DNA from: a virus
DNA: 42,567 bases
Reading direction: 5' to 3' (one strand)
IMG/VR virus record: IMGVR_UViG_3300046516_001619
Coordinates: 1-42,567 of that record
In this document: piece after piece, positions 5,615 to 42,567 of the stretch
Layout of the letters: each line of letters begins with the position of its first letter
How positions within the stretch are numbered: the stretch's first letter is position 1
Notes under the pieces: model-generated
What the model was told of the DNA's origin: nothing
The model's input: only the letters and a program-made list of their open reading frames with translations
Databases searched by the model: none
Position numbers and translations under genes: made by a program

Positions 5615-6174
5615 ACGGGCACCTCGACGCCCAGCAACTGCTTGAGCCGGTCGTAGGCCAGCTTGATGCGGATGAAGTCCGAGGCGTTGCCGCCCATGTC
5701 CGGGTGGTGGATCAAGGCCAGTCGACGGAACGACCTGGTCACCTCGTCCACCGTGCACGGCCACCTGAGGCCCAGGTCCGGTAGCCAGAGCCGTACTTCG
5801 TACGGCGCCTGCGCTACCGACGCGTGCGCCTTCTTCTTCGAGTGCTGCGGCTCTGGCCGCGGCGCGCCCCGCACCTGGCCAGGACACGTTTCAAAATGGC
5901 ATTCGCCACTAGCCCGATCGCCGTCCACGTCCATCGGCCGCCGCTTGCCCTTGACCGTGGTCTCCCACCACACCTTCGCGTTGCACGCCTTGCAGTTGCT
6001 GACCCGGTAGCGCTGGCCGTCCACGTCAGTCACCCATTCCGTGGCCTGACACGACTCGAAGTGCGGCTGCTCCTCCTCGTCGTCGTCGTATGGCCAGACA
6101 CGCTCAGGATCGAACGGGTTCGCCCCCCACCAGATCTTCGAGCCGCAGTTTCGGCAGCGACCCCAGCCGGCCAT
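5611..6174 (-). CDS. J-domain (DnaJ-like) protein with a duplicated zinc-ribbon
   Basis: C-terminal J domain: WPCTVDEVTRSFRRLALIHHPDMGGNASDFIRIKLAYDRLKQLL (HPD motif). The N-terminal half carries two similar units, CRNCGSKIWW...HFESC and CKACNAKVWW...HFETC. ATG 6174 (MAGWGRC) is preferred over 6303: it has a GAGGA SD 9 nt upstream, and third-position GC drops in 6175..6303. Confidence 0.75.
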   Translation of the reverse strand: MAGWGRCRNCGSKIWWGANPFDPERVWPYDDDEEEQPHFESCQATEWVTDVDGQRYRVSNCKACNAKVWWETTVKGKRRPMDVDGDRASGECHFETCPGQVRGAPRPEPQHSKKKAHASVAQAPYEVRLWLPDLGLRWPCTVDEVTRSFRRLALIHHPDMGGNASDFIRIKLAYDRLKQLLGVEVPV

Positions 6175-6329
6175 CAGCGCTGTCCTCGCTTGGCCATGGT
6201 GGCCAGCCTGGCCCAGCCCGTGGGCGCCTGCTTGGCCGGGATCGAATGCCACGATCCATCCCCCGGATCCTGGACGTTGAGCCACCCCTGCTCGCGACCC
6301 CAAATGACCCGCGGGAGCCCCAAATCGAT

Positions 6330-6371
6330 TTCATCCCGCATCCCGGTATATATACGCGGATGCGGGATGAA
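6330..6371. repeat. 42-bp near-perfect palindrome with a TATATATA core (candidate origin, operator or bidirectional terminator)
   Basis: ttcatcccgcatcc (6330..6343) pairs with ggatgcgggatgaa (6358..6371). The centre gtatatatac (6346..6355) is itself palindromic. CCCCAAAT direct repeats lie at 6298..6305 and 6318..6325. Confidence 0.8.
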
Positions 6372-6387
6372 CGGTTGATGCCTAAAC

Positions 6388-11061: not shown

Positions 11062-11844
11062 CTAGAACAAATAGAGCTTTGGGTACCACTCCACGGCGAG
11101 ACGACGGAGCGTCTGTGCGGGCGACTCCTTTTCCTTCTTCCAGTACGGTTTCAGATACTTGGTCAGGGTCACGGTACTGCCGACCAAGGTTGCTTTCATG
11201 ACTGCCCTGACCGCGACTTTGCCGTCTCCGAGTGCCCGGTGCAAGCGCTCGTCAAAATCATCGGCTGGAATGAGGCGGTCTCCTTTGTCGGGACGGGCCT
11301 TGCGCGGCTTCTTCGGCTTGCGCAGCCTCTCTTCGATCTCGTCGTCCTCGGTCCGAACGTGAGCCAGGCGGTCGGCCATGTCGTCCACCTTCATCGCCAG
11401 GTTCTCGAGGCGATAGTTGCGCCACCGGAGGTGGTCCCACGGTGTCTGGAACTGGGGACCGTCCAGGTAGTCGACGCTGATGTCGGCAACGACCTCCCAC
11501 AGCCCACACATCAGGTTGAACGTCATCACCGCATCGGAGAGCTCGATGCAGCGACCGTCCCTGGTCTCGATCCAGCTGACGATGTGCTCCTCGACGCTCT
11601 GGGCCAGTTTCAGTCGGAGCTGGGCCATTGCGATCGCGGCAATCTCGGAGTCGTCCGCGGACGTGTGGTGGGGCCGCAGTAAACGCCTGCCCGGATGGTC
11701 GACAACCTCTTCACGGCCGTAGCCCATCACGACACAGAAGGCGTTGTTACAGGCGACGATCAGGCCCTGGGCATTGACTGTCCAGGCAATGCGTACGGAC
11801 TGTGGAATATCGCGGAGGCCCATGGGTGCCGCACCCTTCCCCAC
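11062..11844 (-). CDS. PAS-domain protein with a basic linker and a C-terminal HTH-like segment (putative switch regulator)
   Basis: IAWTVNAQGLIVACNNAFCVVMGYGREEVVDHPGRRLL...WIETRDGRCIELSDAVMTF...GLWEVVADIS matches the PAS pattern (G.I...N.af....GY..eE..G ... kdG ... DIs). The linker is RLRKPKKPRKARPDKGDR. The C-terminus VRAVMKATLVGSTVTLTKYLKPYW is HTH-like. It is the first gene of the leftward early operon. GTG 11844 or ATG 11823. Confidence 0.6.
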   Translation of the reverse strand: MGKGAAPMGLRDIPQSVRIAWTVNAQGLIVACNNAFCVVMGYGREEVVDHPGRRLLRPHHTSADDSEIAAIAMAQLRLKLAQSVEEHIVSWIETRDGRCIELSDAVMTFNLMCGLWEVVADISVDYLDGPQFQTPWDHLRWRNYRLENLAMKVDDMADRLAHVRTEDDEIEERLRKPKKPRKARPDKGDRLIPADDFDERLHRALGDGKVAVRAVMKATLVGSTVTLTKYLKPYWKKEKESPAQTLRRLAVEWYPKLYLF

Positions 11845-12515: not shown

Positions 12516-14327
12516 ATGATGGCACCCAAACGCCCCTTTAGCCTGCGTTCAGGCCCAGCCTCTCCGCTTACCGTTCTGCGCATTCAGCAAGCCATTGCCT
12601 ATGGCCGCGTCTCGAGCGAGATGCAGCGCGACAGCGAGTCGATCAAGGTCCAGGTGACCAAGTTGCTGGGCACGATCAATGTGCGCGACAACCCCGAGCT
12701 CCCTGACCGCGACCAGCTCCGACTGCTGGGCGCCTACTGGGACGATGGCGTCAGCGGCACGCTGCCGCTCGAACAACGGCCCGAAGGCCGCCAGCTCATG
12801 GAGCGCATCTGCCCGCGGCTGTCCACCAAGTGTGACGGTTTGTGCGGCCACAATGGCGAGGTCGATCAGGTGTGGATCACCAAACTGGATCGACTGGCGC
12901 GCAAGCTCCAGATCCTGATCGATATCGAAGCCTGGCTGCGACGGCACAACGTGTCGCTGATCTGCATGGATCCATCGATCGACACGCGCACCGGGACCGG
13001 TCGGCTGGTGTTCACCATCCTGGCGAGCATTGCCGAATGGGAACGCGAGACGATCCTCGAGCGCACCACAGCTGGCAAACATCACAAGGCTTCGGAGGGC
13101 AAGTGGGTGGGCGGTCGCCAGACCTTTGGTTTGAAAACTGACGAGAACGGCTATCTGGTCATCGACGACACGTTCGTCGACCGTTGTGGCGAAATGGCCT
13201 ACCGTGTCGTCCAATCGATTTTCGAGAACATCGCGCTGCATGGATCGACGGCGTGGAAAGAAGCGCAACGCACCGGTCTGACCGAGCGTCGCGTCGGCTG
13301 GATCCTGCACAACGCGCGCTACAAAGGCGAGGGTGGCATCTACGCCAAAGACGGCTCGTTCACGGCTGCCGAAAAGAACGCGCCACCACAGCTTGTCAGC
13401 CCCGCGCTGTGGCAGATGGCCCAGGACGCGTTGATTACCAACCGCGCCAAGGCCGGGGGCCGACATCATCGCACGTACCTGTTGAGCGGGCTCCTGATCT
13501 GCTGTGAGCCGTATGACTACATCTCCACGGTGGACGATCAGGGCCGTACCCGCGAACGTCCGTCAGACAAAGTCAGTGGCCAGTGCGGCCGATCGTTTGC
13601 TGGACGTGCGGGCGTCAACAAGCCCGGCGGTCCCGAATACAGCTACTACTTCTGCACGCGCACGCTGAAGGCTCAGGTCGAAGCCAACCGAAACGGCTGC
13701 ACGGCCAAGATGCTGCGCTCCACCGATGTCGACAACGCCATTTGGAATCTGGTCAAGCGTTTCGTCAGCAATCCGGGCGAGGTCATTGCCGAGGCAGACT
13801 CGGGCCGTAGCGACATGCTGACTCAGTTGAACAGAGACCTCACCCATGTCGTCGAGCAGCTCGGCCAGGCGCATATGGAACGCGAGAACGTCTTGCGTTC
13901 GGCCGAACGTGGTCTACGCACATGGGACGAAGCCGAGGCTCGCCACCGTGAGATCAGCGGCCAGATCAAAGTCCTCGAGCAGCAGCGTGACGCGTTCGAG
14001 ATGCAGATCCGCTCGCTCAGCTACGCCGACCTGGACGCGCAGCGCGGCGAGGTCACGCTGAACGACATCAGCGAGGACCTCGAAGAGATCGAGCGCGAGA
14101 ACAACGTTGAGCTCAAGAAGGCGTTGATTCAAGCGGTCGTCAGACGCATCGAAGTCCGTACCGTGGACGGTGAACCACGGCTGCGAGCGATGATGCGCTT
14201 CGGTGGAGACGCCAGTTTTTTGATGAAGGAACTACGGTCGGGACGGAAACCGACAGACGATACGCATATGGAAATGAGCGTGAGTCTTGCGCCAGGCAAA
14301 AAGGACTGGAACGTCTCGGCCGCGTAG
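12516..14327 (+). CDS. int: Large serine recombinase (integrase)
   Basis: Resolvase-type catalytic domain with AIAYGRVSSEMQRDSESIKVQ (catalytic Ser) and ITKLDRLARK...LASIAEWERETILERT. It continues with a recombinase domain, the Cys cluster LICCEPYDY...GQCGRSF...YYFCTR...NGC (zinc ribbon) and a C-terminal coiled coil. 603 aa. Confidence 0.9.
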   Translation: MMAPKRPFSLRSGPASPLTVLRIQQAIAYGRVSSEMQRDSESIKVQVTKLLGTINVRDNPELPDRDQLRLLGAYWDDGVSGTLPLEQRPEGRQLMERICPRLSTKCDGLCGHNGEVDQVWITKLDRLARKLQILIDIEAWLRRHNVSLICMDPSIDTRTGTGRLVFTILASIAEWERETILERTTAGKHHKASEGKWVGGRQTFGLKTDENGYLVIDDTFVDRCGEMAYRVVQSIFENIALHGSTAWKEAQRTGLTERRVGWILHNARYKGEGGIYAKDGSFTAAEKNAPPQLVSPALWQMAQDALITNRAKAGGRHHRTYLLSGLLICCEPYDYISTVDDQGRTRERPSDKVSGQCGRSFAGRAGVNKPGGPEYSYYFCTRTLKAQVEANRNGCTAKMLRSTDVDNAIWNLVKRFVSNPGEVIAEADSGRSDMLTQLNRDLTHVVEQLGQAHMERENVLRSAERGLRTWDEAEARHREISGQIKVLEQQRDAFEMQIRSLSYADLDAQRGEVTLNDISEDLEEIERENNVELKKALIQAVVRRIEVRTVDGEPRLRAMMRFGGDASFLMKELRSGRKPTDDTHMEMSVSLAPGKKDWNVSAA

Positions 14328-14458
14328 GCCATACTCAGGATTGCTGTGTGTTTGGGTGCCAATCCGCGCGCAGCCGCCCCTCGATCACCTTCTTGATCGG
14401 GGGGCTTCTCTTTGCTACAGCGCGATGTAAAGTGATGCGTGTAGGCACCAGACACACG

Positions 14459-14490
14459 AACGGCCACGCCAGAGTCGAAGCGTGGCCGTT
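14459..14490. repeat. Perfect 11-bp inverted repeat with a 10-nt spacer downstream of int (candidate attP core or terminator hairpin)
   Basis: aacggccacgc (14459..14469) - cagagtcgaa - gcgtggccgtt (14480..14490). No T-run follows (gtggatcc). Confidence 0.75.
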
Positions 14491-14527
14491 GTGGATCCAG
14501 ATCACCTGTACAGAGGAGATCCAGTCC

Positions 14528-14728
14528 ATGTCCAGTTTAGCGAACGAACTGTTCTCGTCTTTCCAGCCAGTCGGCACCGGCCGCCAGGTGGGGTGCTGGG
14601 TCAAGGACTGCACGATCCCCGCGGACTGGCTGGTCAAGTTCTCGCGGCCGGTCCTGGGCACACCCCTGATCGCGCTGTGCGACGCTCACCTGTATGCCTT
14701 TGAGACGTCGACGACGGAGTTGCTGTGA
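14528..14728 (+). CDS. Hypothetical protein (66 aa)
   Basis: ATG 14528 is preceded by gaggag. The product starts MSSLANELFSSFQPVGTGRQVGCWVKDCTIPADWLVKF...CDAHLYAF. The stop overlaps the next GTG start. Confidence 0.5.
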   Translation: MSSLANELFSSFQPVGTGRQVGCWVKDCTIPADWLVKFSRPVLGTPLIALCDAHLYAFETSTTELL

Positions 14729-15018
14729 CCCCCAACAGAAATCCAATTCCGTACTCACCCCAGCTAAAGAACATCATCCGTATTCTTGAACGACAAGGAC
14801 GCCACGGCTACAAGCACAAGTACGGGGAATTGGATCTCGTGATGGAGATTGCCAAGAAACTGCAACTCCTAGAAATACTGTTAGGAATCGCTGAAGAGCA
14901 CCGTCACTACGAGGACTATCACCGCTATGCCAAACGTATTCCGCAGAATCAGCAGAACCTCGAAATGGCAATACACGAATATGAGCACGCGTTAGCCCGC
15001 AATGGTGCAAAGCCGTGA
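14725..15018 (+). CDS. Hypothetical His/Tyr/Glu-rich protein in a low-GC islet (97 aa)
   Basis: ORF track, GTGA coupling at both ends. Two 60-nt lines counted by hand (14761.., 14821..) are 48 % and 45 % GC, well below the surrounding sequence. Confidence 0.55.
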   Translation: MTPNRNPIPYSPQLKNIIRILERQGRHGYKHKYGELDLVMEIAKKLQLLEILLGIAEEHRHYEDYHRYAKRIPQNQQNLEMAIHEYEHALARNGAKP

Positions 15019-15185
15019 CCGCGTGCCCCACCTGTGGTCACTGGTGGCTGCGGCAGCCGCGCTGGTATCAGCTCTGGTTGTGGCCCGCGTACTGGACACG
15101 CTGTCCATTCCTGGATCTCTACGAAACACGCCCGTGGCTGCTCGAGGAATCCGACTTCATGGCTGATCTGCTGGGGCACCAATGA
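15015..15185 (+). CDS. Trp-rich zinc-ribbon-like small protein (56 aa, below the ORF-track cutoff)
   Basis: Manual translation gives VTACPTCGHWWLRQPRWYQLWLWPAYWTRCPFLDLYETRPWLLEESDFMADLLGHQ. GTGA overlap upstream and ATGA overlap downstream. 9 Trp in 56 aa. Confidence 0.5.
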   Translation: MTACPTCGHWWLRQPRWYQLWLWPAYWTRCPFLDLYETRPWLLEESDFMADLLGHQ

Positions 15186-15469
15186 CTGACGTCGTGTGCA
15201 AGGACTGTGGACGCGCCGGCACCGAGACTCCCGACGATCCCGCGCCGAACCTCTGCCCGTCCTGTTACGAGAACCGACTGAAGCGGATCACGCCGCTGTT
15301 CATAGCCAAAGTCGAAGCAGTCGGGGACGATGGCGACATCACACCAGCCATCGTCTGGCTCGCGCAGGCGCTCGAGGAGATCGGTGGTGAAACTCGTGAA
15401 GCTGCCCGCCAACACGCCAACTATCTCGGGCACATGGCGTCGATCGAATCGCACCAGCAGCAGAACTAG
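15182..15469 (+). CDS. Zinc-ribbon protein (95 aa)
   Basis: N-terminal CKDCG...x15...CPSC (two CxxC pairs). ORF track. Confidence 0.55.
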   Translation: MTDVVCKDCGRAGTETPDDPAPNLCPSCYENRLKRITPLFIAKVEAVGDDGDITPAIVWLAQALEEIGGETREAARQHANYLGHMASIESHQQQN

Positions 15470-15483
15470 GAAGAGCTAATAGT

Positions 15484-15771
15484 GTGGTTATGTCGGCCAA
15501 ACTTCCCGACCCGTACGTGCGCTTCTACATCGACCATGGCGTTGAGGTAGCCACAATGTCAGCCGCCGATTTTCGCGCAGCGATGCTCGAACGCGACAAC
15601 GAGATCCAACGGTTGCGGACAGCACTCGCCAGGGGGCGGTCGCTGGTCACCGACATGGACGAACTCATGCCGTCGCAAGCAACCGAAGACGAGGACGGCT
15701 TCATCAGTTCTTACCGCATCCCGGTCGGCCCCTGGCATCGGCTGTTGGGCTGGGCGCGGGGTGCTTGGTGA
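15484..15771 (+). CDS. Hypothetical protein (95 aa)
   Basis: GTG 15484 lies 6 nt after ggaagag; ATG 15490 is the alternative. It contains MLERDNEIQRLRTALARG, a motif shared with the next two genes. Confidence 0.5.
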   Translation: MVMSAKLPDPYVRFYIDHGVEVATMSAADFRAAMLERDNEIQRLRTALARGRSLVTDMDELMPSQATEDEDGFISSYRIPVGPWHRLLGWARGAW

Positions 15772-16181
15772 CTGACAAGGAGCCACGTCTCATTAGGGGC
15801 TTGACCGCGCTGACAACCGAGGACTACCAGGCATTGCTGCGCGAGCGTGACGAACTCCGCGCCGAGGTCGAACGGCTCAAGCAAGGAGCCAAAGACATGG
15901 CCGTCCAACTCCACGACCAATACCTCGAATTGGCCGACACACTCGCGGCCGTCCGCCAGGACCACGAACGCTCAATCCAACAGCGTGACGAATTCCGCGC
16001 CGAGATCGAGCGGCTACGAGCGGTGGCTGGCGGGTTAGTACGCGATAACAGCCAATTGACACAGATGCTTGCTGATCTGCGGGCGGCGCTGACCGAGATC
16101 ACGGACCTCGAACTAGAGGGCGACGCGTCTGTTGCTGACGCCATGAGGATCGCCGACGAGGCGCTCAACCCGCCCGCTTGA
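15768..16181 (+). CDS. Coiled-coil protein (137 aa)
   Basis: GTG 15768 overlaps the upstream TGA. It carries an internal duplication: LLRERDELRAEVERLKQG and IQQRDEFRAEIERLRAVAG. Confidence 0.55.
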   Translation: MTDKEPRLIRGLTALTTEDYQALLRERDELRAEVERLKQGAKDMAVQLHDQYLELADTLAAVRQDHERSIQQRDEFRAEIERLRAVAGGLVRDNSQLTQMLADLRAALTEITDLELEGDASVADAMRIADEALNPPA

Positions 16182-16450
16182 AAGAGCTATTTGTTCCTAT
16201 GACTACCAAACCTGACCGGCTGGACGAGATCAAGAGTCGCGGCTGGTATGACCAGGGGCCGGATGACTTCGCGTGGCTCGCGGCCGAGGTCGAGCGGCTG
16301 CGGGCCGAGAACGAGTTACTTCGGGCAGTGGCTGAAACGAGCCGAACCTATGTATTCGGGCTGGTCAACACAGGTTCGAGGTACGACGCCGTCGTCGCTG
16401 CACTTGCTGCGTTGGACGCTTGGATGCTTGGTAGAGATAACAGCCCTTAG
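16178..16450 (+). CDS. Hypothetical coiled-coil protein (90 aa; alternative ATG at 16199)
   Basis: TTGA overlap with the upstream stop. It contains WLAAEVERLRAENELLRAVAE. Confidence 0.5.
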   Translation: MKELFVPMTTKPDRLDEIKSRGWYDQGPDDFAWLAAEVERLRAENELLRAVAETSRTYVFGLVNTGSRYDAVVAALAALDAWMLGRDNSP

Positions 16451-25478: not shown

Positions 25479-26486
25479 TCAGCCCTCGCCGCCAGTTGCG
25501 GCCTTCTGCTGCACTACGCCAAAGGGATAGCGCGAAGCCTTGGTCGGCTGTTGGCGATTGACCGGGTTGGGCACCGCCCAGGCAAAGCGGGCGATCACAC
25601 GGAGCGCCACCATGTCCTGTTGGAGCAGGTTGAACTGGATGACCGGTGGCGCGCCGTTATCGGTGATGACACCCGTGTCAAACATCTCCATGCTGATGTC
25701 TTCGCGGATGGCCAGCATCGACTGGTCCCACTGACCCATGATCATGGAGTAGTTGGCCGCGCCCGTGGCATAGCCCGACAGGCCAGCGTTGCTGAAAATG
25801 ATCGGCTCGCCGTACAGAGACCCGGTGTCAGCCGAGGCTGTTGGAGCCACGTCCGGATACCACAGCAACTCGTTGGTGGTCGCCCGCAGACCACGTAGCT
25901 TGCTCTTGACCTGGCGACGTGCCCAGAACCCGGTGATGTCGAAGCCGTCGGCCTCCACCGCCGCCATGGCCGCGTTGACGTCAGCCAGGTAGTCGGGTGT
26001 GGTCGCGCCAGCAATGATCAGGTTGCCGGCTGAGCTGGCCGAAGCGACGATACTGGTGGGGAACGTCGACGGCGCGTTGTTGCCGAAGAAGATCGCCTCG
26101 TCGAGCGCGACGCCGAACGCCTCGGTCACTTTCGGCTTGACCTGCGCCCAGAAGTCATAGTCGATGTCGTCGAGGAGGTTCTTGCTGATGGGGACGATGA
26201 CGGCCATCTCCTCGGCGTTCAGGTAGACGTTGTCCCAGGCCAACGAGGTGGTCTGCTTCATGCCGACATCCCTGGCGTCGAGGCTCGCGCCGGTCAGCCA
26301 GTACGCAATCGGCAGCTGGCTCATGACCGGGATACGCTGCTGCGCCCGTTTCATCGTCACATGGGGCATGAGCCGCATCGCGGCCGATTTCTCTTCGACG
26401 GACTGGACGATGTCTTTCTGGACGTCTTCAGGGATTAAAGGCCCGGTACCTGGTACGGCACGGGTGGCGATGCTGTTGTAGGGAAT
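25479..26486 (-). CDS. Major capsid protein, HK97 fold. The 5' end is extended to a putative ATT start; the first ATG is at 26378
   Basis: The body matches HK97-type capsid proteins (...LDEAIFFGNNAPSTFP..., ...GFWARRQVKSKLRGL..., ...LYGEPIIFSN..., ...MALRVIARFAW...). The open frame upstream of ATG 26378 encodes IPYNSIATRAVPGTGPLIPEDVQKDIVQSVEEKSAAMRLMP, the usual conserved N-terminal arm. This upstream stretch has no ATG/GTG/TTG/CTG. An in-frame ATT at 26486 lies 7 nt after GGAG. Confidence 0.8.
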   Translation of the reverse strand: MPYNSIATRAVPGTGPLIPEDVQKDIVQSVEEKSAAMRLMPHVTMKRAQQRIPVMSQLPIAYWLTGASLDARDVGMKQTTSLAWDNVYLNAEEMAVIVPISKNLLDDIDYDFWAQVKPKVTEAFGVALDEAIFFGNNAPSTFPTSIVASASSAGNLIIAGATTPDYLADVNAAMAAVEADGFDITGFWARRQVKSKLRGLRATTNELLWYPDVAPTASADTGSLYGEPIIFSNAGLSGYATGAANYSMIMGQWDQSMLAIREDISMEMFDTGVITDNGAPPVIQFNLLQQDMVALRVIARFAWAVPNPVNRQQPTKASRYPFGVVQQKAATGGEG

Positions 26487-29168: not shown

Positions 29169-29372
29169 ATGCACATTCCTGACTGGTTGTTCATCGTCTT
29201 CATCGTGCTCTGGATACCGGGTGGCATCCTGGTCATGGCCCTGCCGAGCGGCCCCAGCACGATCCTTGCGGTCATCCTGGCCCTGCCACTGGTGGTCGGC
29301 TTCATCCTGAACGTCATCGCCGGTATCCGTGAGCAGCGCCTAGCGGCCCGCGGTCGCCATCGCAGTCTCTAA
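29169..29372 (+). CDS. Opposite-strand small membrane protein (67 aa, two TM helices); moron-like
   Basis: MHIPDWLFIVFIVLWIPGGILVMALPSGPSTILAVILALPLVVGFILNVIAGIREQRL. Strong third-position G/C bias in this frame. It occupies the otherwise empty 226-bp gap between two minus-strand virion genes. A TATCAT -10-like hexamer is at 29148..29153. Confidence 0.55.
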   Translation: MHIPDWLFIVFIVLWIPGGILVMALPSGPSTILAVILALPLVVGFILNVIAGIREQRLAARGRHRSL

Positions 29373-32300
29373 GCGCCGGTTGTATTCGCTGTCCGGAATG
29401 CTGTCGCGAATGTCCGCGGCGGCTTCCTGACGCGCGCGATCGACACGCAACTGGACGATCTTCAACTTCTGAGCCGAGGGCATGCCCTCGAGGTCGCCGC
29501 TGGCGCGCAGCTCCTGGAGAGCCTGGTCGCTATAGCGATTGGCCAGTTGCTGGTAGTGCGTCTCCTCGATCGCCGTGAGCGGCACCTTGCCAATCTGCGG
29601 CGTGACCGGCGACGGTGTCCACTCCACGCCCTGCGACTGCAAGTAGCGCAGGTTGTCGTCACTGACCAGATTGGTGCGAGCCGTATTGCCGAGCTCGCCG
29701 GTGCTGCCGCGCACGCCCAGCGCGGACAGCAGACCACCACCGACAGGTGCTTGCTGCGGTTGGTTGCCGGTATCCGAACCGATGTTGCTGGCGCCGAGAA
29801 CGGAGGCGCCCACGCCACCGAACATGTCGCGCACGGCAAAGTCCAGTTGGGACGGACGGATCTGCAGACTCGGATCGATCGCTCGCGCGGCCGTGGTCAA
29901 GGCTGTGGCCATGCCCTTCGACGCGGCCGAAGCCTGCTGGTCGTTGCGCACCGTGGCGATCTGGCGGTTACGGAAGATGTCTTTGTTCAAGGCCAACTGC
30001 AAGCCCGTGTTCATGCCGGGGATGAACTGTGGCTGCAGCGATCCGGGGATGTCGGCCGCGGTCTGGGCGCGCATCGGCACAGCTGACCAGGCCATCGATT
30101 GCAGCGCTTTGGCCCAGTCGGTGTGGTCCGGCGTCCCCACCGTGTTCTCGAGCGCCTGGTGGGCAGCCGTTCTTGCGGCAACGACGAATGGGGCGTAGCC
30201 GCGCGCGTTGATCCACTGAAACTGTGGATGGCGATTGCCCTGGGCGTCGACGGGTGCTTCGCCCGGCAGCATGATCACCACACCCTGGTCCTTCAGGTAC
30301 TGCGGCACGTCAGCGTAGTCCTGGGCGCGCTGCGGGTCGGCGTTGTTCCACGCCTCGGCCATGACCGCCGGCACGCCGACGAGCATGGTCGCCGACGCCA
30401 GTGCGCCACGCGGGTTCTCTTTGAACGCGCGCGCCACCTGGGCGGTGCCCTGGATACCCGCGTTGGTAAACGGGATGAACGAGTTGATCGTCTTGGCAAA
30501 GGTGCCGCCCTCATTGAAGTCGAGCGTGACCGTACGGCCGTTGAGCACCGCGCGCGCCGGCGTCGCGCCGCGGCGTTCTGCGAGGCGCATGCTGGCGATG
30601 CGCGGTCCCTGCTCGGTGCGCTCGGCAACGGCCGCAATCGGTCGCAACGTGGCGACTTGCTTGAGCACCTTGACCATGTCGCTGGGGTTATTGATCAGGT
30701 TGCCGCCGACCGCCTTGACTGACTCGGCCAACTGACCGGGTGAGCCGAACTCGAACGTGGGTGTGGCCAGGCCACGCACGGCTGCCTTGCGCTCGGCGAC
30801 CGTGCGGCTCACCGTCCCCGCACCACCGCCGCCGCCTTCGATGAATTGCTGCGCGCCCTTGCCGCGCTGCTCGTTCTGGAGCAATCCCTGGAACGCGTCG
30901 GCATACCCTTTAAAGAGCTCACCGGTGATGCGCGGCAAGGCCAGTGGATTGCCGCCTTCACGCGACAGCTCGCGCTGGAAGTACTCGGGTACGTCCAGGC
31001 TGGGGTTGCGCACCAGAGCGAAGGCCGGGTTGAGCACCGTCGTCACGTTGCGCATGAAGTTGGTCCAGTGGCGAACGAATCCCGGCGCCTGCTCGACGAG
31101 CGGTCCGTTGATTGCCGCGGCCAGCTCGGGTGGCGCGACGTAGCGTTCGACCGTGCCGTTGTTGATGCGCTGCACGATTGGCTGCCCGGCCGTGGCCGGC
31201 TTGTCCGTCCGCTGCAGCAACTGCTCGCCCTCGGGGCGCGCCTGGTCCAGATTGACGAAGGCGTTCGCCACCGCATTACGGCGAGCCTTCGTCTCCACCT
31301 GGTGGGTCAGGCCGACGATCGAGCCGAGCGGATCCTCCCGGAACTTCTGGGTGCCCTCGACGGTGTAGTTGCGAATGCCCGCGTCGGCTAGACCGATCTT
31401 GGTCCCGGCGCGCAGATTGCCCGAGGCTTCACCCTCGTGCAGGTAATCGAGAATCCTGGTAGGCACCCAGTTGGGGTACTTCTGCTGCCAGGCCTGGGCC
31501 GTCTCGGGTGAGATAACGCCATGGTCGACCATGGTCTGGCGCAGCCCGCCGATGTAGCTGTAGACATCGCTGGCAGCCTGGTTGAGGCGAGCCATTTGCT
31601 CGGGACCGAGTTCTTTGGCCATGGTGTCGAGGGCCTTGATCGAGTCGGCCACGCGCAGCCCCCCGGAGAAGGCGCGATTGGCGTACGCGTCCTGGCCGGC
31701 TGCCGCAGCGTCCTGGAGGATCTGCTGGCGGGCGCTGTCCACCGCGGCCTGAGCCTTGTCGAGGCTTCGCTGCGCGGCCGGAACCTGACGTCCGCTCGCG
31801 GCGTCGCGCCTGGCCTGGGCCTTGTCCAGCGCATCGGTCAAGCTCGAGGCAATCGGCTTGTCGGCAGCGTCGGCCTGGACCGCGTCGCCGATAGCCCTGG
31901 CCACGTCGATGTTGTTGCGGTGGATCAACAGCGTGTTGAGCGCTGGCAATTCGTCGTTGACCGACTGGACGATGGGCTTCAGGTCGCGATTGATGCGCAC
32001 CTCGGCAGCCGGGTCGCCGTTCTGCTCGCGCAGCAAGGCACTGACGTCCAGGTTCTCGGGCGGGTTAGCCAGGTCGGTGTGGCCGATCGATTGCAACGCG
32101 TCCTGCTGGTAGCGGTCGGCCGCCTCGTAACGATTGGTGACCGCGCGCACGAAGCGGTCGCGCAGGCTGCCCGTCGGTGGAGCCGGCGGCTCAGAGCCGA
32201 GCATGCGACCGACAGCGCGATTGGCTGGATCGGCTGAAGTGGTGGGATCCCAACCTCCACCAGTAGGTGGCGGCGGCTCACCGGCACGCACCGTGACGCG

Positions 32301-35018
32301 AGCTGTGGGTGTCTCGGCTGTGACCGTTTCGCCGGGTGCCGAGGCGGCACCGCCAAAAGCTGCAGTTGCCGCCGACGGTGGGGTTCCGGTGAGACCGCGG
32401 TCGATTCTGGACTGGGCCAGGGCCGCTCCTTCGGGGGTATACCCGCCACGGCCGGTCGCCGATTCGACGTCGATTCCGGCGTCCTTGGCTGCCTGGTAGA
32501 GCTGAGTCGCAATGCCCTGACGCTGAAACTCGGGAGTGACCGCGACTTCGACGACGTCGGGATTGCCACTGGCGTCGTTCAGGACGGACAGGATTCCCTG
32601 AGGCTGGCCGTTTTCGTCGCGGAATACGACGTTGTTGCCGAGCTCGGGGCGAGGCGTGCCCACGCCGTTACCCATCGGCTCCACGGAGATGCCCGGCGCT
32701 CCTTCGTGATTCACGAGCCAGGCAGATAGCTGGCCTACGGTATTTGCCTCAGCCTGAGGCTGCGTTGCAACGACTGGCGCTCTTTCACCAGCGGGCGGTA
32801 TTCGCGGAGTTTCCGCGGCACCGGCCGCGCCTTCGAGCGCACGCCCTCCGCGCGGGACTTCCGGGGGCAGCGTCACGCCACCGATGGCCAGTTGAGCGCT
32901 CTCCCAGCGCTGACGATCCTCTGGCGTCATGATGCTGGGATCTGGAAGGAGGCCACCGGGGGCGTACTTCTGGCTCAACTCCTGGATGGTGTCAATCTGG
33001 GTCAAGATGCTGGGCGCGCCGACCAGGCCACCAGCCAGACCGGTCACTCCGCCAACCACGGGCATGTCCGGGGCGATGTTCGAGATCGCGCTGCCCAGCT
33101 CCTGACGCTTCTGCTCGAGCGCGCCACCAGGCAGCAACGCGTTGACGGCTGGGCCAACCACATTCTGCCCGAGGCTCTGCTCGGCACCGGTCAGGACGTT
33201 GCTGGGCATTAGTGGGTTCGACGCCACGCCTGTTCCGACATCTGAACGCGCGCCCTGGACCTGATCGATGAAGTCGCTGAAGGCATTCTTCAGGCGATCC
33301 ACCGCGTTTTGAGCCTGGGTCGGCTCGGTCTGCGGCGCATTGCCCGTGCCCAGCGGATTGGTCAGTTGGTCCGATGGTGTGGGTTGACTGCCAGCCGGTG
33401 TGGGGCCACCGGGTGCAGCCACCAGGGGGCCGACGTCCGGTGACACAGAGCCGGCGCTGGTAACTGCCTGGTCGAGCTGCTGCGTCACCTGATCCGCCGC
33501 TTGCTGAACGCCACCAGCCACGTTCTGAGCCGCAGTGCCGACACCTGAGAAGAAACCTCCGATGCTGTCTTTCGCCCGATCCAGGAAACCGCCGGGGTTG
33601 GTCGTCTGGTCAGCCGTACTGGGTGCCGGAACCTGTGGGTTGTCAGCCAGCAGGGCTCCCTGGATGGGCCCCATGATGGCTTGCATCTGATCCGGCGTCA
33701 TCCACTCGGCGCCGCCCTTCAGGTCGGTTCCGGAGCGTCCGACGTGAAACGCACCCGAGTTGGGGTCGTAGCCGTCAGCCGTGAAATAGTGACCCTGGGT
33801 CGAAATCGTAACCGGATTGCCGGTCTGGGCTTCCTTGGCCATGGTCGCAACGTCCGGACCGATCAGCCGTGTCGGCACCCCGAGCTTGTCCATGAGGGCT
33901 TTTTCGGACGAAATACCAGCCATGCCCTGGGCACTCGTCCAGCCGACGCTCTGGGCCAGGTCGGTGGCTTCACGGAGCGTCGGGTTGCGGCCAAACTTCT
34001 GGGCAAAGCGGACGGCAGCCGCCGGTCCGCACGCGGCATAGGCTTCGTCGTTGGAAAGTTGCGGATCGCCGAACTGGCTGATGTCACGGCCACCACTGGT
34101 CCAACTGCCGGTGCGCGCGAGGAGCTCTCCCGGGGTGGCCTGCTGCTGTGGAGCCTGACCCTGCAGGATAGTGTCGACGTAGTTCTGCGTCTCTTTAAAA
34201 GGAGGGACGCCACCGTACTTGTCGACGTTGCCGCCACCGGCGTTGTACGCAGCCAGGGCTTTGCGGTAGTCGCCCTGGTACTTCTGCAAGTTCTGGGCGT
34301 CCAGCCTGGCCGCGGCATCCAGGCTGGCATAAGGGTCGGTGGGGTCCAGGCTGACGCCAGCGGCTGTCTCGGGCATGAACTGGGCAATCCCGATCGCACC
34401 AGCTGGCGACTTTGCCGTAGGGCTGAACCCAGACTCTTGCTGGATCTGACGGCTGAAGATATCCGGGTCGATACCGGCCTTCTGCGCTGCTTGCCGCGCA
34501 TACGCCTGCAGATCGCCACCACGTGTGATGTCTGTTGTCGTCGGCTGCGATTGCTGAGGAAACGCCTCGGCCGGCAGCGTATCGGGCGGTGGCGTGATTG
34601 GCCGCTGGGGAGGCGCGCCCGAGGGCGTCACGCCAAGAGCCTGGCTCACACCCGACGGCAGGATATCCGGGGGCTGTGTCGTTTGTGACGGCTGTGTGAC
34701 GGCTGACGAGGGCAGGACGGACGGTGGTGGGGTCAGTCGCACGTTCGACGGGATAGATGGCCACGCGTCAGGCTGAGAAGTGACTGCCGGCGCCGTCGGG
34801 GTGGAGGGCGACGAAGGCGGCGCCGGCAGCACATCCGGCGGAGGAGTGAGCGTGGCGTTACCCGTCCCTAGCGGGTTGGTCAGCGCATCGCTCGATGGTG
34901 GCGGCTCGAGCGTGGAGACCTGCCCGATCTGGTCGATCCTGGACTGGGTCTGCTGCCCAAACTGGTCAGCCTGATACTGACGGTAGTCGTCCTGCGGAAC
35001 GTCCGGCAGATCAGGCAT
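29340..35018 (-). CDS. Giant polyvalent virion/ejection protein (1892 aa): Pro-rich repeats + SLT lytic transglycosylase + papain/C39-like Cys peptidase + GNAT acetyltransferase + about 1000-aa uncharacterised C-terminal region
   Basis: SLT domain: FSRQIQQESGFSPTAKSPAGAIGIAQFMPETA...LAAYNAGGGNV (aa ~165-285, nt ~34164..34526). Peptidase: NDEAYAACGPAAAVRFA...TQGHYFTADGYD (aa ~305-460, nt ~33639..34106). GNAT motif A: VVEVAVTPEFQRQGIATQLYQAAKDAGI (aa ~760-875, nt ~32394..32741). N-terminal (L/I)TPPP(D/S)xLP repeated four times. LTNPLGTGNA occurs twice (aa ~46 and ~552). Confidence 0.8.
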   Translation of the reverse strand: MPDLPDVPQDDYRQYQADQFGQQTQSRIDQIGQVSTLEPPPSSDALTNPLGTGNATLTPPPDVLPAPPSSPSTPTAPAVTSQPDAWPSIPSNVRLTPPPSVLPSSAVTQPSQTTQPPDILPSGVSQALGVTPSGAPPQRPITPPPDTLPAEAFPQQSQPTTTDITRGGDLQAYARQAAQKAGIDPDIFSRQIQQESGFSPTAKSPAGAIGIAQFMPETAAGVSLDPTDPYASLDAAARLDAQNLQKYQGDYRKALAAYNAGGGNVDKYGGVPPFKETQNYVDTILQGQAPQQQATPGELLARTGSWTSGGRDISQFGDPQLSNDEAYAACGPAAAVRFAQKFGRNPTLREATDLAQSVGWTSAQGMAGISSEKALMDKLGVPTRLIGPDVATMAKEAQTGNPVTISTQGHYFTADGYDPNSGAFHVGRSGTDLKGGAEWMTPDQMQAIMGPIQGALLADNPQVPAPSTADQTTNPGGFLDRAKDSIGGFFSGVGTAAQNVAGGVQQAADQVTQQLDQAVTSAGSVSPDVGPLVAAPGGPTPAGSQPTPSDQLTNPLGTGNAPQTEPTQAQNAVDRLKNAFSDFIDQVQGARSDVGTGVASNPLMPSNVLTGAEQSLGQNVVGPAVNALLPGGALEQKRQELGSAISNIAPDMPVVGGVTGLAGGLVGAPSILTQIDTIQELSQKYAPGGLLPDPSIMTPEDRQRWESAQLAIGGVTLPPEVPRGGRALEGAAGAAETPRIPPAGERAPVVATQPQAEANTVGQLSAWLVNHEGAPGISVEPMGNGVGTPRPELGNNVVFRDENGQPQGILSVLNDASGNPDVVEVAVTPEFQRQGIATQLYQAAKDAGIDVESATGRGGYTPEGAALAQSRIDRGLTGTPPSAATAAFGGAASAPGETVTAETPTARVTVRAGEPPPPTGGGWDPTTSADPANRAVGRMLGSEPPAPPTGSLRDRFVRAVTNRYEAADRYQQDALQSIGHTDLANPPENLDVSALLREQNGDPAAEVRINRDLKPIVQSVNDELPALNTLLIHRNNIDVARAIGDAVQADAADKPIASSLTDALDKAQARRDAASGRQVPAAQRSLDKAQAAVDSARQQILQDAAAAGQDAYANRAFSGGLRVADSIKALDTMAKELGPEQMARLNQAASDVYSYIGGLRQTMVDHGVISPETAQAWQQKYPNWVPTRILDYLHEGEASGNLRAGTKIGLADAGIRNYTVEGTQKFREDPLGSIVGLTHQVETKARRNAVANAFVNLDQARPEGEQLLQRTDKPATAGQPIVQRINNGTVERYVAPPELAAAINGPLVEQAPGFVRHWTNFMRNVTTVLNPAFALVRNPSLDVPEYFQRELSREGGNPLALPRITGELFKGYADAFQGLLQNEQRGKGAQQFIEGGGGGAGTVSRTVAERKAAVRGLATPTFEFGSPGQLAESVKAVGGNLINNPSDMVKVLKQVATLRPIAAVAERTEQGPRIASMRLAERRGATPARAVLNGRTVTLDFNEGGTFAKTINSFIPFTNAGIQGTAQVARAFKENPRGALASATMLVGVPAVMAEAWNNADPQRAQDYADVPQYLKDQGVVIMLPGEAPVDAQGNRHPQFQWINARGYAPFVVAARTAAHQALENTVGTPDHTDWAKALQSMAWSAVPMRAQTAADIPGSLQPQFIPGMNTGLQLALNKDIFRNRQIATVRNDQQASAASKGMATALTTAARAIDPSLQIRPSQLDFAVRDMFGGVGASVLGASNIGSDTGNQPQQAPVGGGLLSALGVRGSTGELGNTARTNLVSDDNLRYLQSQGVEWTPSPVTPQIGKVPLTAIEETHYQQLANRYSDQALQELRASGDLEGMPSAQKLKIVQLRVDRARQEAAADIRDSIPDSEYNRRLETAMATAGR

Positions 35019-36411: not shown

Positions 36412-37374
36412 TTACGCTCTCGTTTGCGGCACGGACGGCAAGCCCTGGCGTGGCGCAACGCCCGCCGGGACCGAGCCGTAGAACGTTGGATACCAGCCTC
36501 GCTGCAGCGCGACGTCGAGCGCGTAGTCAGTCGCCGCTCGCCACGCTCGAGGATCGCCGGGCTGCCAGCCAGTCTGTGCCGTGAAGTCGTTACCCAGACC
36601 AGGCGTTGTGCCGTACTGCTCGTATCCCGTCCCCCCGTAGTGGAGTTGAAATGGCCACCAGCTCGAGCCCGTGGAAAACGTGCCGCGCGCATTCGGCTGA
36701 CCGGAGGCAGTCCCCTCATGGAATGCGACAGCGAGTGCCGTGCCTGGATCGATACCACGCTGCTGGGCAGCCGCAGCGATGTACTGGTTGATCTCGTCCG
36801 TTGTCGGCTGACCGCGATCGATCGCATCAGCCGGTCGTGAAGGTGTCAATGGCACCACCGCTTCAGGACCGGCCTCGCCGATGAGCGCGACTGTGGGTTG
36901 GGTAACGATGCCACCACCAGCCATGGCCGGCACGATCGGCACGATGCGCGAGACCTGCGCGCTGGCTACGCCGCGCGGGACCATCGGCACCGGCACGCCA
37001 CTCGGCGCCTCGGGCGGAGTGGCCTGGGTGATCGGTTCGCCAGGCATGCCCGGTGGGGTCGGCAATTTCAGTTGCGGGTAGGCCTTGAGCACGGCTTTGT
37101 AGACCTGGGTGAAGCCCTGCGGTCCCAACCGCTGCATCTCCTGCTGACGACCCTGCAGGTTGGGCGTGCCGTCCGGATTGAACAACTGGTCGCGGTAGTA
37201 CTCGAGCTTCTGCGTCTCGGACAACTGAGCCGCGAACGGAGCCACGCCCTGAGGCGCCATGGCCGCGGCGATCCTGGTCGACTCCTGATCGATCCACAGG
37301 GCCAGGTCGGTCGCCACCGTATCGAGCATGGTTTGCTGTGGCGGCATCAGCCGAAGACCTTCCACACCAGCCAC
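36412..37374 (-). CDS. Virion protein with a C-terminal lysozyme/SLT-like domain (320 aa; alternative start ATG 37347)
   Basis: GGIVTQPTVALIGEAGPEAVVPL is a motif seen in tape-measure and ejection-type proteins. The C-terminal QQRGIDPGTALAVAFHEGTASG...WWPFQLH is transglycosylase-like. Confidence 0.55.
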   Translation of the reverse strand: MAGVEGLRLMPPQQTMLDTVATDLALWIDQESTRIAAAMAPQGVAPFAAQLSETQKLEYYRDQLFNPDGTPNLQGRQQEMQRLGPQGFTQVYKAVLKAYPQLKLPTPPGMPGEPITQATPPEAPSGVPVPMVPRGVASAQVSRIVPIVPAMAGGGIVTQPTVALIGEAGPEAVVPLTPSRPADAIDRGQPTTDEINQYIAAAAQQRGIDPGTALAVAFHEGTASGQPNARGTFSTGSSWWPFQLHYGGTGYEQYGTTPGLGNDFTAQTGWQPGDPRAWRAATDYALDVALQRGWYPTFYGSVPAGVAPRQGLPSVPQTRA

Positions 37375-39994: not shown

Positions 39995-40234
39995 TCACTT
40001 GTCCGGGTAGTCGACGTGATTGAACTGGGCCTCCAGCGCTTGGAGCGGGCTGGTGTTCTGACTGAGACCGTAGCTTCCAAACCACGTCCTCTGGTTCGGC
40101 CACTGGACGTGGTGGCACGTCTGGGTGGCGACGACAACGTCGCAGTGCTCGCAATGCCGGTGGGGGTAACCGACGTGGCAGCACGGTCCGCGTCCGCCAC
40201 AGGTCAGAGTCGTCAAGGCAACCTTCTTTCTCAC
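39995..40234 (-). CDS. Cys/His-rich putative zinc-binding protein (79 aa)
   Basis: In-frame GTG 40234 overlaps the terminase TGA (GTGA). The product reads VRKKVALTTLTCGGRGPCCHVGYPHRHCEHCDVVVATQTCHH... Confidence 0.45.
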   Translation of the reverse strand: MRKKVALTTLTCGGRGPCCHVGYPHRHCEHCDVVVATQTCHHVQWPNQRTWFGSYGLSQNTSPLQALEAQFNHVDYPDK

Positions 40235-41577
40235 CCGAACCTCAGGCTCGTCGGTTCCGTCGGCCGAGGCGGCTGCGCCTCGGCACACAGCCCATACCTG
40301 AGCGCGTCCGGCGCGTGGTCCTCGGTCTTGCTTCCTTTAATGGAGTCGGCGACATCCTCGGGATCTAACGGGTCGACGACCATGGCCGGCAGCGTCCGTT
40401 GCAAGTTCGGAGCGCAGCCAGCCAGGATCTGCAGTCTCGGTGGACCGGCATCGTGCGCCAGGGCTCGTCGCGTAATGGCCCAGCCCTGCTTTCTCGAGTT
40501 CATCCCGGGAAACACCGGGTTGACCCCGTGGGACCAGTACACCGCGGCAATGCTTGGCCGCTGCTGCTCCGTCCTCAGGTTGAACATGCTCGGATCCAGG
40601 ATCCTGAGATTGAGCCGCTCGCCTTCGCTTCTGCTTTTGATCGCCTCGGCTTGCTGCTCGTCTCGGAGCCCGGCCGCGTACAGCTCGCGGTAGACAAAGA
40701 TCTTGCGGGTCTCGGGCTCGCGGGCAAACCACAGACAGCAGAACGGAGCCGCGAAGCCGTAATCCACGGCCAGCCACCTGGGCCACTCCTGGGGAATCTC
40801 GAAGCTCGGGCAGATATGGAGATTCGGATCCCACTCGGTGAAGTACATGCCCTCGGCCGCGACCCACAACCCCAGCCGCAGCCGCTGGTACAGGAACCCG
40901 GTCAGGCTGTCCAGCGTCTGCATGTACTCTTTGCCGAAATCTGTCCACGCACCCTGGCTATAGAGCTGAGGATTATCCTCGTGTTTGGACTCGAGTAACA
41001 AACACTCCAAACTATTGCATCTTTGCTTGAGCCAATGGTCCGGAGAACTGGGGTTACAGTCGGCGATAATCTGCCGATAACTGAGCACCCCATTCCGCAA
41101 TCCACGGAGCAGCATGGCCCAGTCGTCCTCGTCCAATTCGGTCGCTTCCTGGACGTACACGACGTCGAATTCGGTCGACCCAATTTTCTCCGGATCGTCC
41201 ATCCCAGCGACCATAATTCGGGCCCCACTGGGGTACCGATATTCCTGATCGCCTTCATGAAATCGGACCTGATTCGGCCGTGGAAGCACCTTGTTTTCGA
41301 GGGTCGCCATGGCACTCTGGGTCAGGCTCTTGCGCGTCTTCCGAACGATCGCGGCACGGATCGGTTTCTGCATCGCGATCAGGTTCAATTTCTCCAGACA
41401 CGCCCTGCTTTTTCCGGTCCCCGCTGGCCCACTCAACAGGACTTCTCTGGCCCTTGATTTAAAGAGGTTCAGGGCTGCACCGTGGGGCTCATAGGGCGCC
41501 TCTTCCGGACTCGCCTCGGTCCCCCACTCCACCGTCGCCGGCCGGCCCACCAGGCTCAGCTTGTTACTCGGCGGCAC
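40231..41577 (-). CDS. terL: Terminase large subunit
   Basis: Walker A VLLSGPAGTGKSRACLEK, Walker B-like FDVVYVQEATEL, and a C-terminal nuclease region (WLAVDYGFAAP...EDHAPDALRYG). 448 aa. Confidence 0.85.
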   Translation of the reverse strand: MPPSNKLSLVGRPATVEWGTEASPEEAPYEPHGAALNLFKSRAREVLLSGPAGTGKSRACLEKLNLIAMQKPIRAAIVRKTRKSLTQSAMATLENKVLPRPNQVRFHEGDQEYRYPSGARIMVAGMDDPEKIGSTEFDVVYVQEATELDEDDWAMLLRGLRNGVLSYRQIIADCNPSSPDHWLKQRCNSLECLLLESKHEDNPQLYSQGAWTDFGKEYMQTLDSLTGFLYQRLRLGLWVAAEGMYFTEWDPNLHICPSFEIPQEWPRWLAVDYGFAAPFCCLWFAREPETRKIFVYRELYAAGLRDEQQAEAIKSRSEGERLNLRILDPSMFNLRTEQQRPSIAAVYWSHGVNPVFPGMNSRKQGWAITRRALAHDAGPPRLQILAGCAPNLQRTLPAMVVDPLDPEDVADSIKGSKTEDHAPDALRYGLCAEAQPPRPTEPTSLRFG

Positions 41578-42185: not shown

Positions 42186-42567
42186 TTAGAGCACGGATGC
42201 CGGGTCTACCCCGGCAATAGCCTTCACGACCTGGCTCACTGCTACGTCAACCTTCTCGCGGTACACGTCTGGTTTTCTGGCCCGGAGTAGAAGCATTAAT
42301 AGGTTGTCGGAGTACTCGATTTTCTCATCGGTACCGACTGGCTCACCGTGCCAGTAAGAGGTTCGTTTATACGGTGAACCTTCGATAGCTCGTCTGAAGG
42401 CTTCCTTCTCTAAACGTTCCGTAGCTTGTTCGCCCGCGATACGGAAACCGTTAGCGAACTCTGGATCATGCTCTTGCCATTCATAAACGCAACTACGTGG
42501 CACCTTAGCTTGTTCGCACGCGTATGAGATATTCGCCCACTTAGCGTATGACTCTAGAAACGCATGC
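42186..42567 (-). CDS. Small terminase-like HTH protein, C-terminal segment (full product about 158 aa when joined to 128..222)
   Basis: The ORF track shows VPRSCVYEWQEHDPEFANGFRIAGEQATERLEKEAFRRAIEG...LLMLLLRARKPDVYREK. The frame stays open to the window end. It lies about 600 bp upstream of the large terminase, separated from it by a ~200-bp gap and two small ORFs (41791..41976, 41564..41761). GC is visibly lower than in the rest of the genome. Confidence 0.6.
   Translation of the reverse strand, partial: HAFLESYAKWANISYACEQAKVPRSCVYEWQEHDPEFANGFRIAGEQATERLEKEAFRRAIEGSPYKRTSYWHGEPVGTDEKIEYSDNLLMLLLRARKPDVYREKVDVAVSQVVKAIAGVDPASVL
42441..42567. repeat. Terminal direct repeat, copy 2 (identical to 1..127)
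   Basis: Same 127-nt string as 1..127. Removing one copy gives a 42,440-bp circular map. Confidence 0.97.

Follow-up and report, generated by a model that had tools for sequence, protein, structure and literature searches.

An LPD38-containing giant protein with SLT, C39-like peptidase and truncated GNAT domains, encoded between the terminase and major head protein genes of a metagenomic phage

The virus record IMGVR_UViG_3300046516_001619 of IMG/VR, analysed here over its whole length of 42,567 nucleotides (nt; this stretch is called the window below), carries a giant gene for a protein of 1892 amino acids (aa), and the domains, relatives and surroundings of this gene are the subject of this report. 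An earlier note, made from the letters alone, had described one uninterrupted open reading frame (ORF) at 29340-35018 without naming a strand; the frame is indeed uninterrupted and lies on the minus strand. From the N- to the C-terminus, the protein consists of a proline-rich N-terminal region, an SLT lytic transglycosylase domain followed by a C39-like cysteine peptidase domain, a variable middle part including a truncated GNAT domain (mini-GNAT), and a conserved C-terminal module including LPD38 (Large polyvalent protein associated domain 38). These features lie at the following positions of the window.

29340..35018, minus strand: the whole ORF, 1892 aa and a stop codon, with its ATG at 35018
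34539..35018, minus strand: proline-rich N-terminal region, aa 1-160, 23% Pro
34854..34883, minus strand: LTNPLGTGNA copy 1, aa 46-55, within the longer (P/S)SDxLTNPLGTGNA
34824-34850, 34710-34736 and 34572-34598, minus strand: TPPPxxLP-type repeats, aa 57-65, 95-103 and 141-149
34656-34679, minus strand: degenerate repeat TQPPDILP, aa 114-121
34179..34502, minus strand: SLT lytic transglycosylase, aa 173-280, with the catalytic Glu195 at 34434-34436
33639..34079, minus strand: C39-like papain-fold Cys peptidase, aa 314-460, with Cys330 at 34029-34031 and His410 at 33789-33791
33336..33365, minus strand: LTNPLGTGNA copy 2, aa 552-561, at the end of the N-terminal lytic-module homology
32844..33221, minus strand: uncharacterised module of ~120 aa, aa 600-725, with the pattern NPLMPSN...KY...DPSxMTPEDR...GGVT
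32394..32741, minus strand: truncated mini-GNAT, aa 760-875, with motif A QRQGIA (aa 832-837) at 32508-32525
29343..32018, minus strand: conserved C-terminal module of ~900 aa, aa 1001-1892, delimited by homologue alignments
29763..30320, minus strand: LPD38, aa 1567-1752, found with Pfam

The ORF is a real gene, because 404 related proteins are found in the database and several of them are aligned over the full length; a chance frame in high-GC DNA is ruled out by these homologues. Many of the alignments run from residue 1 to the C-terminus, and an N-terminal MxxLPD is common to the giant protein and the homologues aligned from residue 1. The plus-strand frame across 29340..35018 is packed with stops, and the giant gene's ATG follows the TGA of a 456-aa upstream ORF after 8 nt. 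Nearly all of the 404 relatives originate from metagenomic contigs of ~40-45 kb. A scan of GTDB genomes for relatives yielded only three contigs of metagenome-assembled genomes (17-40 kb), which had been binned as Gemmatimonadales, Actinomycetes and Acidobacteria, and a lookup of the exact protein sequence in public assemblies returned no record.

All the peptide strings quoted in the earlier note are present in the 1892-aa protein: QQESGF (aa 193), GIAQFMPETA (aa 210) and AYNAG (aa 257) in the SLT domain, AACGPAA (aa 328) and GHYFTADGYD (aa 409) in the peptidase domain, and VTPEFQRQGIATQLYQAAKDAG (aa 827) in the GNAT segment. Its count of four (L/I)TPPPxxLP repeats holds for three (aa 57, 95 and 141), TQPPDILP at aa 114 being a degenerate fourth copy. 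A Pfam search with the proline-rich region (aa 1-160) gave no match. The sole cysteine of the whole protein is Cys330, within AACGPAA. The top two 19-mers of a hydrophobicity scan (aa 654-672 and 1538-1556) are only marginal and the hydrophobicity of the Gly-rich aa 654-672 is not kept in homologues, and membrane segments were therefore rejected.

The SLT core, of the family-1 lytic transglycosylases, is borne out by Pfam SLT (PF01464), with an E-value of 1.5e-20 and 73.3 bits against a cutoff of 21.3. Its catalytic Glu195 is located inside QQESGF, upstream of AYNAG, and is conserved in at least 90% of 38 homologues. The domain aligns with T7 gp16 (E 7e-6 as a single sequence and 6e-8 as a profile); its closest match is SPbeta YomI, at 47.7% identity, and Slt70-type structures are recovered by the family profile at 1e-11. 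Homologues that have Glucosaminidase (PF01832) in place of SLT still keep the C39-like domain.

In the C39-like domain, Cys330 and His410 are invariant across 115 homologues, and a family-profile alignment places CGPA and HY on the catalytic Cys and His of ComA-PEP. An AlphaFold 2 (AF2) model of the domain, with a predicted local distance difference test score (pLDDT) of 85, has a papain-like fold, in which the cysteine (residue 31 of the model) opens helix 31-41 and the histidine (residue 111) just precedes strand 112-115. With this model, Foldseek ranks ComA-PEP (5xe8) first in the PDB, followed by PCAT1, the C39-like domain of HlyB and papain-like toxins, and finds among viral structures phi29 gp13-like 'morphogenesis protein 1 hydrolase' proteins, the endolysin of Gordonia phage OneUp and cyanophage lysozymes. 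The C39-like domain is missing from five homologues, and two of the five have a murein endopeptidase directly after SLT, either M23 (P0011, aa 364-459) or NlpC/P60 (P0049, aa 287-389). The gene surroundings offer no ATP-binding cassette (ABC) transporter context. C39-like domains are recognised catalytic modules of lysins in phages of Gram-positive hosts (PMC3314691 Table 1; PMC8223927). Since M23 and NlpC/P60 domains exchange into the same slot, the viral neighbours are lytic and the literature counts C39-like domains among lysin modules, the domain is most likely a peptidoglycan peptidase rather than a processing protease. The papain/C39-like peptidase predicted earlier has thus stood as to its fold and its Cys/His pair, but the slot exchange and the viral neighbours favour a murein-type enzyme over a generic or processing protease. 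We read the SLT and Cys peptidase domains together as a two-enzyme virion-associated murein hydrolase with a presumed cell-wall substrate.

The variable middle part begins with the uncharacterised module at aa 600-725, which is common to ~25 homologues and duplicated in three proteins (P0001, P0059 and P0076), and for which neither a Pfam nor a PHROG family was matched. The mini-GNAT that follows occupies the segment for which the earlier note had correctly given nt 32394..32741, or aa 760-875. Only 5 of the 120 close homologues listed carry this domain, and it is therefore regarded as optional cargo in a variable slot. Acetyltransf_1 (PF00583) reaches 20.9 bits in the whole protein and 25.0 bits in the excised segment against a cutoff of 20.7, and Acetyltransf_7 (PF13508) 26.4 bits against a cutoff of 27; other members of the mini-GNAT family pass the Pfam GNAT cutoffs with up to 37.8 bits. 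Profiles built from 6 and from 30 members retrieve GNATs almost exclusively from the PDB (best E 2e-5), and both the Pfam and the PDB profile matches are confined to the β2-β4/α3 core. The AF2 model (pLDDT 90) consists of four antiparallel strands, the motif-A loop, a helix at 81-91 and a long terminal helix. Its top 50 Foldseek neighbours are all GNATs, with tight superpositions (root-mean-square deviation 2-4 Å) that span just 51-66 columns. Membership of the GNAT superfamily, as claimed before, is thus backed by Pfam, PDB profiles and Foldseek, but a complete fold is not, the β5-β7 half being absent from the model.

An exhaustive profile search recovered 437 cluster representatives of the mini-GNAT family. 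The best 149 of them include 111 proteins of more than 800 aa and 20 solo proteins of at most 260 aa; several of the solos have only 118-150 aa, and because such solo members exist the short form is considered a self-contained domain. The family shares the signature GxPG...E...VxRDxxGxxxG...VxPxxRRxG(I/V)(A/G)..LY...G...TxxG, and its motif A (Q/R-x-x-G-x-G/A), the pyrophosphate-binding loop between β4 and α3, is kept in 107 of 109 members. Two mini-GNAT relatives sit on contigs too short for gene context. The same family is found in two canonical polyvalent proteins, P0163 (3983 aa), together with LPD5, LPD1, LPD3, ART-PolyVal and LPD38, and P0201 (4376 aa), where a methylase, an SNF2/Sbno-type helicase and a MutS_I domain accompany it, an occurrence that fits the GNAT-next-to-ART family described by Iyer et al. 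(PMC5512222).

For the C-terminal half, the earlier note had envisaged further effector domains. Instead, the C-terminal ~900 aa form a single conserved module including LPD38 in the homologue alignments. This module is aligned across ~50 of the 120 listed homologues, and glycine, proline, phenylalanine, arginine and asparagine make up most of its invariant residues. Matches were obtained to phrog_9854 and phrog_14770, two PHROGs without assigned function, and to giant proteins of the Bacillus phages Pascal, PK1 and Palmer, and a whole-family profile found no solved relative of the module among PDB sequences. LPD38 scores 27.1 bits in the whole protein and 32.5 bits in the excised segment against a Pfam cutoff of 27, and BLASTP aligns residues 1398-1739 with the LPD38-bearing part of P0163 (E 1e-3, 377 columns). 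LPD38 has been described as a phage-only domain of polyvalent proteins (Iyer, Burroughs, Anand, de Souza and Aravind, 2017, PMC5512222).

The position of the giant gene is defined by two genes of assigned function.

40231..41577, minus strand: TerL, Pfam Terminase_3
25479..26378, minus strand: major head protein, phrog_10

Along the minus strand, three ORFs (700, 320 and 456 aa) separate TerL from the giant gene, and two more (617 and 252 aa) separate the giant gene from that of the major head protein. The order of TerL, giant gene and head protein is repeated around the homologue P0009 on a 42-kb contig (L002). Because it sits between TerL and the major head protein in an order kept at P0009, the giant gene belongs to the head-morphogenesis block. 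With several disparate domains, the LPD38 marker and this gene position, the identity as a polyvalent protein proposed in the earlier note is upheld; the profile searches that it had named as a check on its GNAT and peptidase calls were run, and together with fold searches they back the SLT, C39-like and GNAT assignments.

We consider it probable, at about 0.7, that the giant gene product is a phage-type polyvalent protein which is packaged in the capsid and ejected with the DNA. Among the LPD38-bearing proteins, gp47 of phi24B is abundant in virions by mass spectrometry and has been proposed as an ejection protein (bioRxiv 10.64898/2026.04.10.717836), and the LPD38 protein of PTXU04 (PTXU04_00025) is required for efficient infection (10.1101/2023.09.18.558157). 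The giant protein would likewise travel inside the capsid and leave it together with the DNA at infection, in the manner of internal virion or ejection proteins. During this passage, the SLT domain would cut glycan strands with Glu195, and the C39-like peptidase would, most likely, cut peptide stems or cross-links with Cys330 and His410. The variable middle part would bring the ~120-aa module and the truncated GNAT, which keeps the acetyl-CoA pyrophosphate-binding loop, and the ~900-aa LPD38-containing module may be structural, docking the protein in the head and/or building a trans-envelope conduit. If the mini-GNAT is active, its action must be confined to the sites where acetyl-CoA is present: either the cytoplasm of the infected cell, once the protein has been ejected, or the producer cell, before it is packaged. 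That this domain acetylates a host target is purely speculative, since the GNAT is truncated and without the β5-β7 half.

Several observations weigh against parts of this reading. Packaging and ejection are proposed by analogy with phi24B gp47, and the genes homologous to the giant gene in the distant Bacillus Pagevirus relatives come after tail genes, not beside the capsid gene. Within the head block, neither a portal nor the 700-, 456-, 617- and 252-aa neighbours obtained an assignment with Pfam, PHROGs under strict and relaxed settings, PDB sequences or tblastn, the sole hint among these neighbours being a weak scaffold match of the 252-aa ORF (E 0.11). When the gene was compared by megablast with 50,697 phage records, no match and thus no close cultured relative came up, and tblastn of the excised C39-like and GNAT segments against cultured phages gave no match either. 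For the peptidase, Peptidase_C39_2 (PF13529, papain-fold clan CA) stays under its cutoff of 24, with 18.3 bits in the whole protein and 22.8 bits in the excised segment; the top PDB neighbours are leader-peptide-processing C39 domains and not murein hydrolases; and no third catalytic residue (Asp/Asn) or oxyanion Gln is assigned among the conserved positions, of which Q315 never varies and D416, H425 and D432 hardly vary across the homologues. The mini-GNAT model, which is without β5-α4-β6/7, reaches Foldseek TM-scores of just 0.35-0.42, and on this model the domain may be inactive or dependent on dimerisation.

Whether the protein is instead a tail component, either tape-measure-like or a tail-associated lysin, was weighed against the preferred reading as capsid cargo and appears very unlikely. 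SPbeta YomI, the nearest match of the SLT domain, carries a tail tape-measure annotation, the PHROG matches include a 'lytic tail protein', the SLT gene and the homologous 1672-aa gene of Bacillus phage Pascal come after tail-spike and tail-fibre genes, and the window is without any other tape-measure-sized gene. However, the giant gene follows TerL and precedes the capsid gene, an order kept in a relative, its product is Pro/Gly-rich and multi-domain rather than a long helical ruler, and phi24B virions contain an LPD38 protein that is missing from the tail reconstruction (10.64898/2026.04.10.717836). A tape-measure protein was indeed rejected on gene position, upstream of the capsid gene in transcription order. 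Far closer to an even balance is the possibility, to which we give somewhat less than half of the weight, that the GNAT-like segment is a non-catalytic remnant with a CoA/ligand-binding or structural role and without acetyltransferase activity. The β5-α4-β6/7 half missing from the model normally forms the acetyl-CoA cleft of GNATs, the tight superpositions and the profile matches are limited in extent as described above, and presence in only 5 of 120 close homologues indicates that the domain is dispensable for the core role of the family. On the other hand, motif A and other positions are near-invariant over 109 diverged members, including the solos of 118-150 aa, and polyvalent proteins combine the domain with other enzymatic effectors; because the near-invariant motif A extends to solo proteins, a conserved ligand site in a self-sufficient domain is suggested.

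A further alternative concerns the element LTNPLGTGNA, whose duplication had been noticed from the outset and is confirmed at aa 46 and aa 552. The two copies, found solely in the giant protein when all six frames of the window were searched, bracket the proline-rich, SLT and peptidase region, and their 10 codons differ by 6 synonymous and 0 non-synonymous changes. Since identical peptides are encoded despite 6 synonymous differences, the peptide itself is under selection, and a recent DNA duplication or a recombination joint is ruled out. Of 121 family members, 27 contain exact distant 7-mer repeats, whereas the block-shuffled controls yield 0-4 such proteins; the repeated peptide varies by lineage (AVGGAASALG, PGGGYDPS, NPFGEAFRQ and others), and in 18 of 37 repeat pairs the two copies bracket the catalytic Cys, the second copy lying ~+150 to +290 from it. 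The C39-like domain might accordingly act, instead of or besides being a murein peptidase, as a cis-acting maturation protease that cuts the precursor at the paired (P/S)SDxLTNPLGTGNA linkers, with PTPSDQLTNPLGTGNAPQTE as a candidate linker substrate peptide. Cuts at aa 46-55 and 552-561 would excise the SLT and peptidase module, leaving the N-terminal peptide on one side and the GNAT/C-terminal part on the other. The double-glycine leader peptidases ComA and PCAT1, which match the domain best in the PDB by fold and by profile, favour such a role, as do the preserved motif copies, the placement of copy 2 exactly at the end of the conserved N-terminal module and the lineage-specific repeats around the catalytic Cys. 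Moreover, autoprocessing has been proposed as a general theme of polyvalent proteins, and the processing proposed for the metallopeptidase domains of other members is an analogous case (PMC5512222). Repeat pairs are, however, seen in only about one fifth of the homologues, several repeated peptides are without a Gly-Gly-like site, and two of the repeat pairs are just duplicated SLT starts. Because the in-situ exchange with M23 and NlpC/P60 and the lysin-type viral neighbours point to a cell-wall substrate, and many pairs have no Gly-Gly-like site, we regard self-processing as unlikely. If true, it would add a fifth, papain-fold way of processing polyvalent virion proteins, with co-evolving cleavage sites, and different compartments could then receive the wall-degrading part and the GNAT/LPD38 part, the latter directed to the cytoplasm.

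Injected polyvalent virion proteins have already been described, and it is the combination of domains in the giant protein that is a new architecture. Like phi24B gp47 and PTXU04_00025, the giant protein is a giant multi-domain late-gene product with LPD38 near its C-terminus; it shares with LPD38 polyvalent proteins a peptidoglycan-cleaving domain, and its GNAT family with members that bear ART-PolyVal and LPD5. It differs from them in that a zincin-like metallopeptidase, MuF, LPD1 and LPD5 are lacking in the Pfam scan; for a metallopeptidase, there was no Pfam match at E≤1 and none in segment scans at E≤10. The zincin-like metallopeptidase hub domain is frequent but not obligatory in polyvalent proteins, and the four peptidase superfamilies listed for them exclude the papain fold (PMC5512222), so that the C39-like peptidase is another difference. 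In addition, the conserved ~900-aa C-terminal module of the giant protein far exceeds LPD38.

T7 gp16 similarly has an N-terminal SLT domain on a protein of more than 1300 aa and a presumed role in crossing the cell wall at ejection. However, its alignment with the giant protein is limited to aa 169-265, that is, to SLT, with nothing shared beyond; the giant gene does not come after tail-tubular genes, and its product has the extra peptidase and GNAT domains. A pair of a glycan cutter and a peptide cutter is also found in phi29 gp13 (lysozyme and M23) and in the mycobacteriophage LysA with its C39-like N5 domain (PMC3314691), and phi29 gp13-like hydrolases and the OneUp endolysin are among the matches of the C39-like fold in the viral structure library. 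In contrast to these two-domain lysins, the enzyme pair here forms the N-terminal fifth of an 1892-aa protein, and its C39-like segment has no sequence-level match among cultured-phage lysins (tblastn). The sole cultured-phage relatives of the C-terminal module are those of the Bacillus Pagevirus phages Pascal, Palmer and PK1, with 24-27% identity over aa ~1130-1745. These phages have an SLT 'lytic tail' gene immediately upstream of a gene for a ~1670-aa hypothetical protein, but the function is split over the two genes, which lie between the tail genes and the lysis cassette. The Pagevirus SLT gene, with 294 aa, is too short for both enzyme domains, though no search for C39-like or GNAT domains was made in either gene.

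Few virion components are as poorly understood as the giant polyvalent proteins. To our knowledge, experimental data on them exist for only a few cases, namely the P1 Dar proteins, N4 virion RNA polymerase (vRNAP), phi24B gp47 and PTXU04_00025. The present family comprises more than 400 purely metagenomic proteins with very clear slots, two for the enzymes that cut glycan and peptide, one for variable cargo and one for a conserved LPD38 module, and this slot structure makes it a clean system for the roles of LPD38 and the ~900-aa module, the activity of the mini-GNAT and processing by a papain fold. Useful outcomes are a domain map with testable residues (E195, C330, H410 and aa 832-837, the motif-A loop), the paired flanking motifs, and the finding that a mini-GNAT family of ~115 aa is widespread in giant proteins, recurring in hundreds of them. 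Current views are not overturned by these findings, which extend the catalogue of polyvalent proteins.

As for the genome as a whole, bases 1-127 of the window are identical to bases 42441-42567, and because both ends carry the same 127 bases the window is probably a complete phage genome of ~42.4 kb, the exact repeat representing either a terminal redundancy or assembly as a circle. Its TerL is nearest to those of actinobacterial phages, with 38% identity to that of Thermobifida phage P1312. Besides the head block, the following genes were assigned.

12516..14327, plus strand: large serine recombinase, with a Resolvase N-terminal domain and a recombinase zinc ribbon
2382-3242, minus strand: PAPS-reductase-like protein
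3411-4166, minus strand: PD-(D/E)XK nuclease
4157-5887, minus strand: C5 cytosine methylase, 576 aa
6388-8283, minus strand: PrimPol and AAA_25 helicase

The large serine recombinase is oriented opposite to the genes on either side of it, those for replication at lower coordinates and those for structural proteins at higher ones; because of this recombinase and the accompanying gene set, the phage is temperate. Beside the recombinase, the region at ~14400-16400 has the lowest GC content (0.59) and no ORF of at least 150 aa, and it may be a lysogeny-control or attP region. The last four genes listed form a minus-strand replication/modification block at 2382-8283, and a Sipho_Gp157 gene is also present in the genome. 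A 260-aa ORF at 11062-11844 on the minus strand shows a weak PAS match slightly below the cutoff (PAS_9, 25.5 bits); a PAS-type sensor domain is unusual for a phage genome.

Two genes upstream of the giant gene, the 320-aa ORF (36412-37374, minus strand) has a match of ~40 aa to several PHROGs at E ~1e-5. The matched parts are the C-terminal parts of tape-measure and endolysin families, and the product may be a further wall-binding or lytic accessory of the same module. On the contig of the homologue P0009, the terminase gene (L002 2849-5092, 747 aa) has a weak intein-splicing match, and another homologue of the giant protein, P0046, bears a LAGLIDADG_3 domain; inteins or homing endonucleases thus appear to circulate in this phage group.

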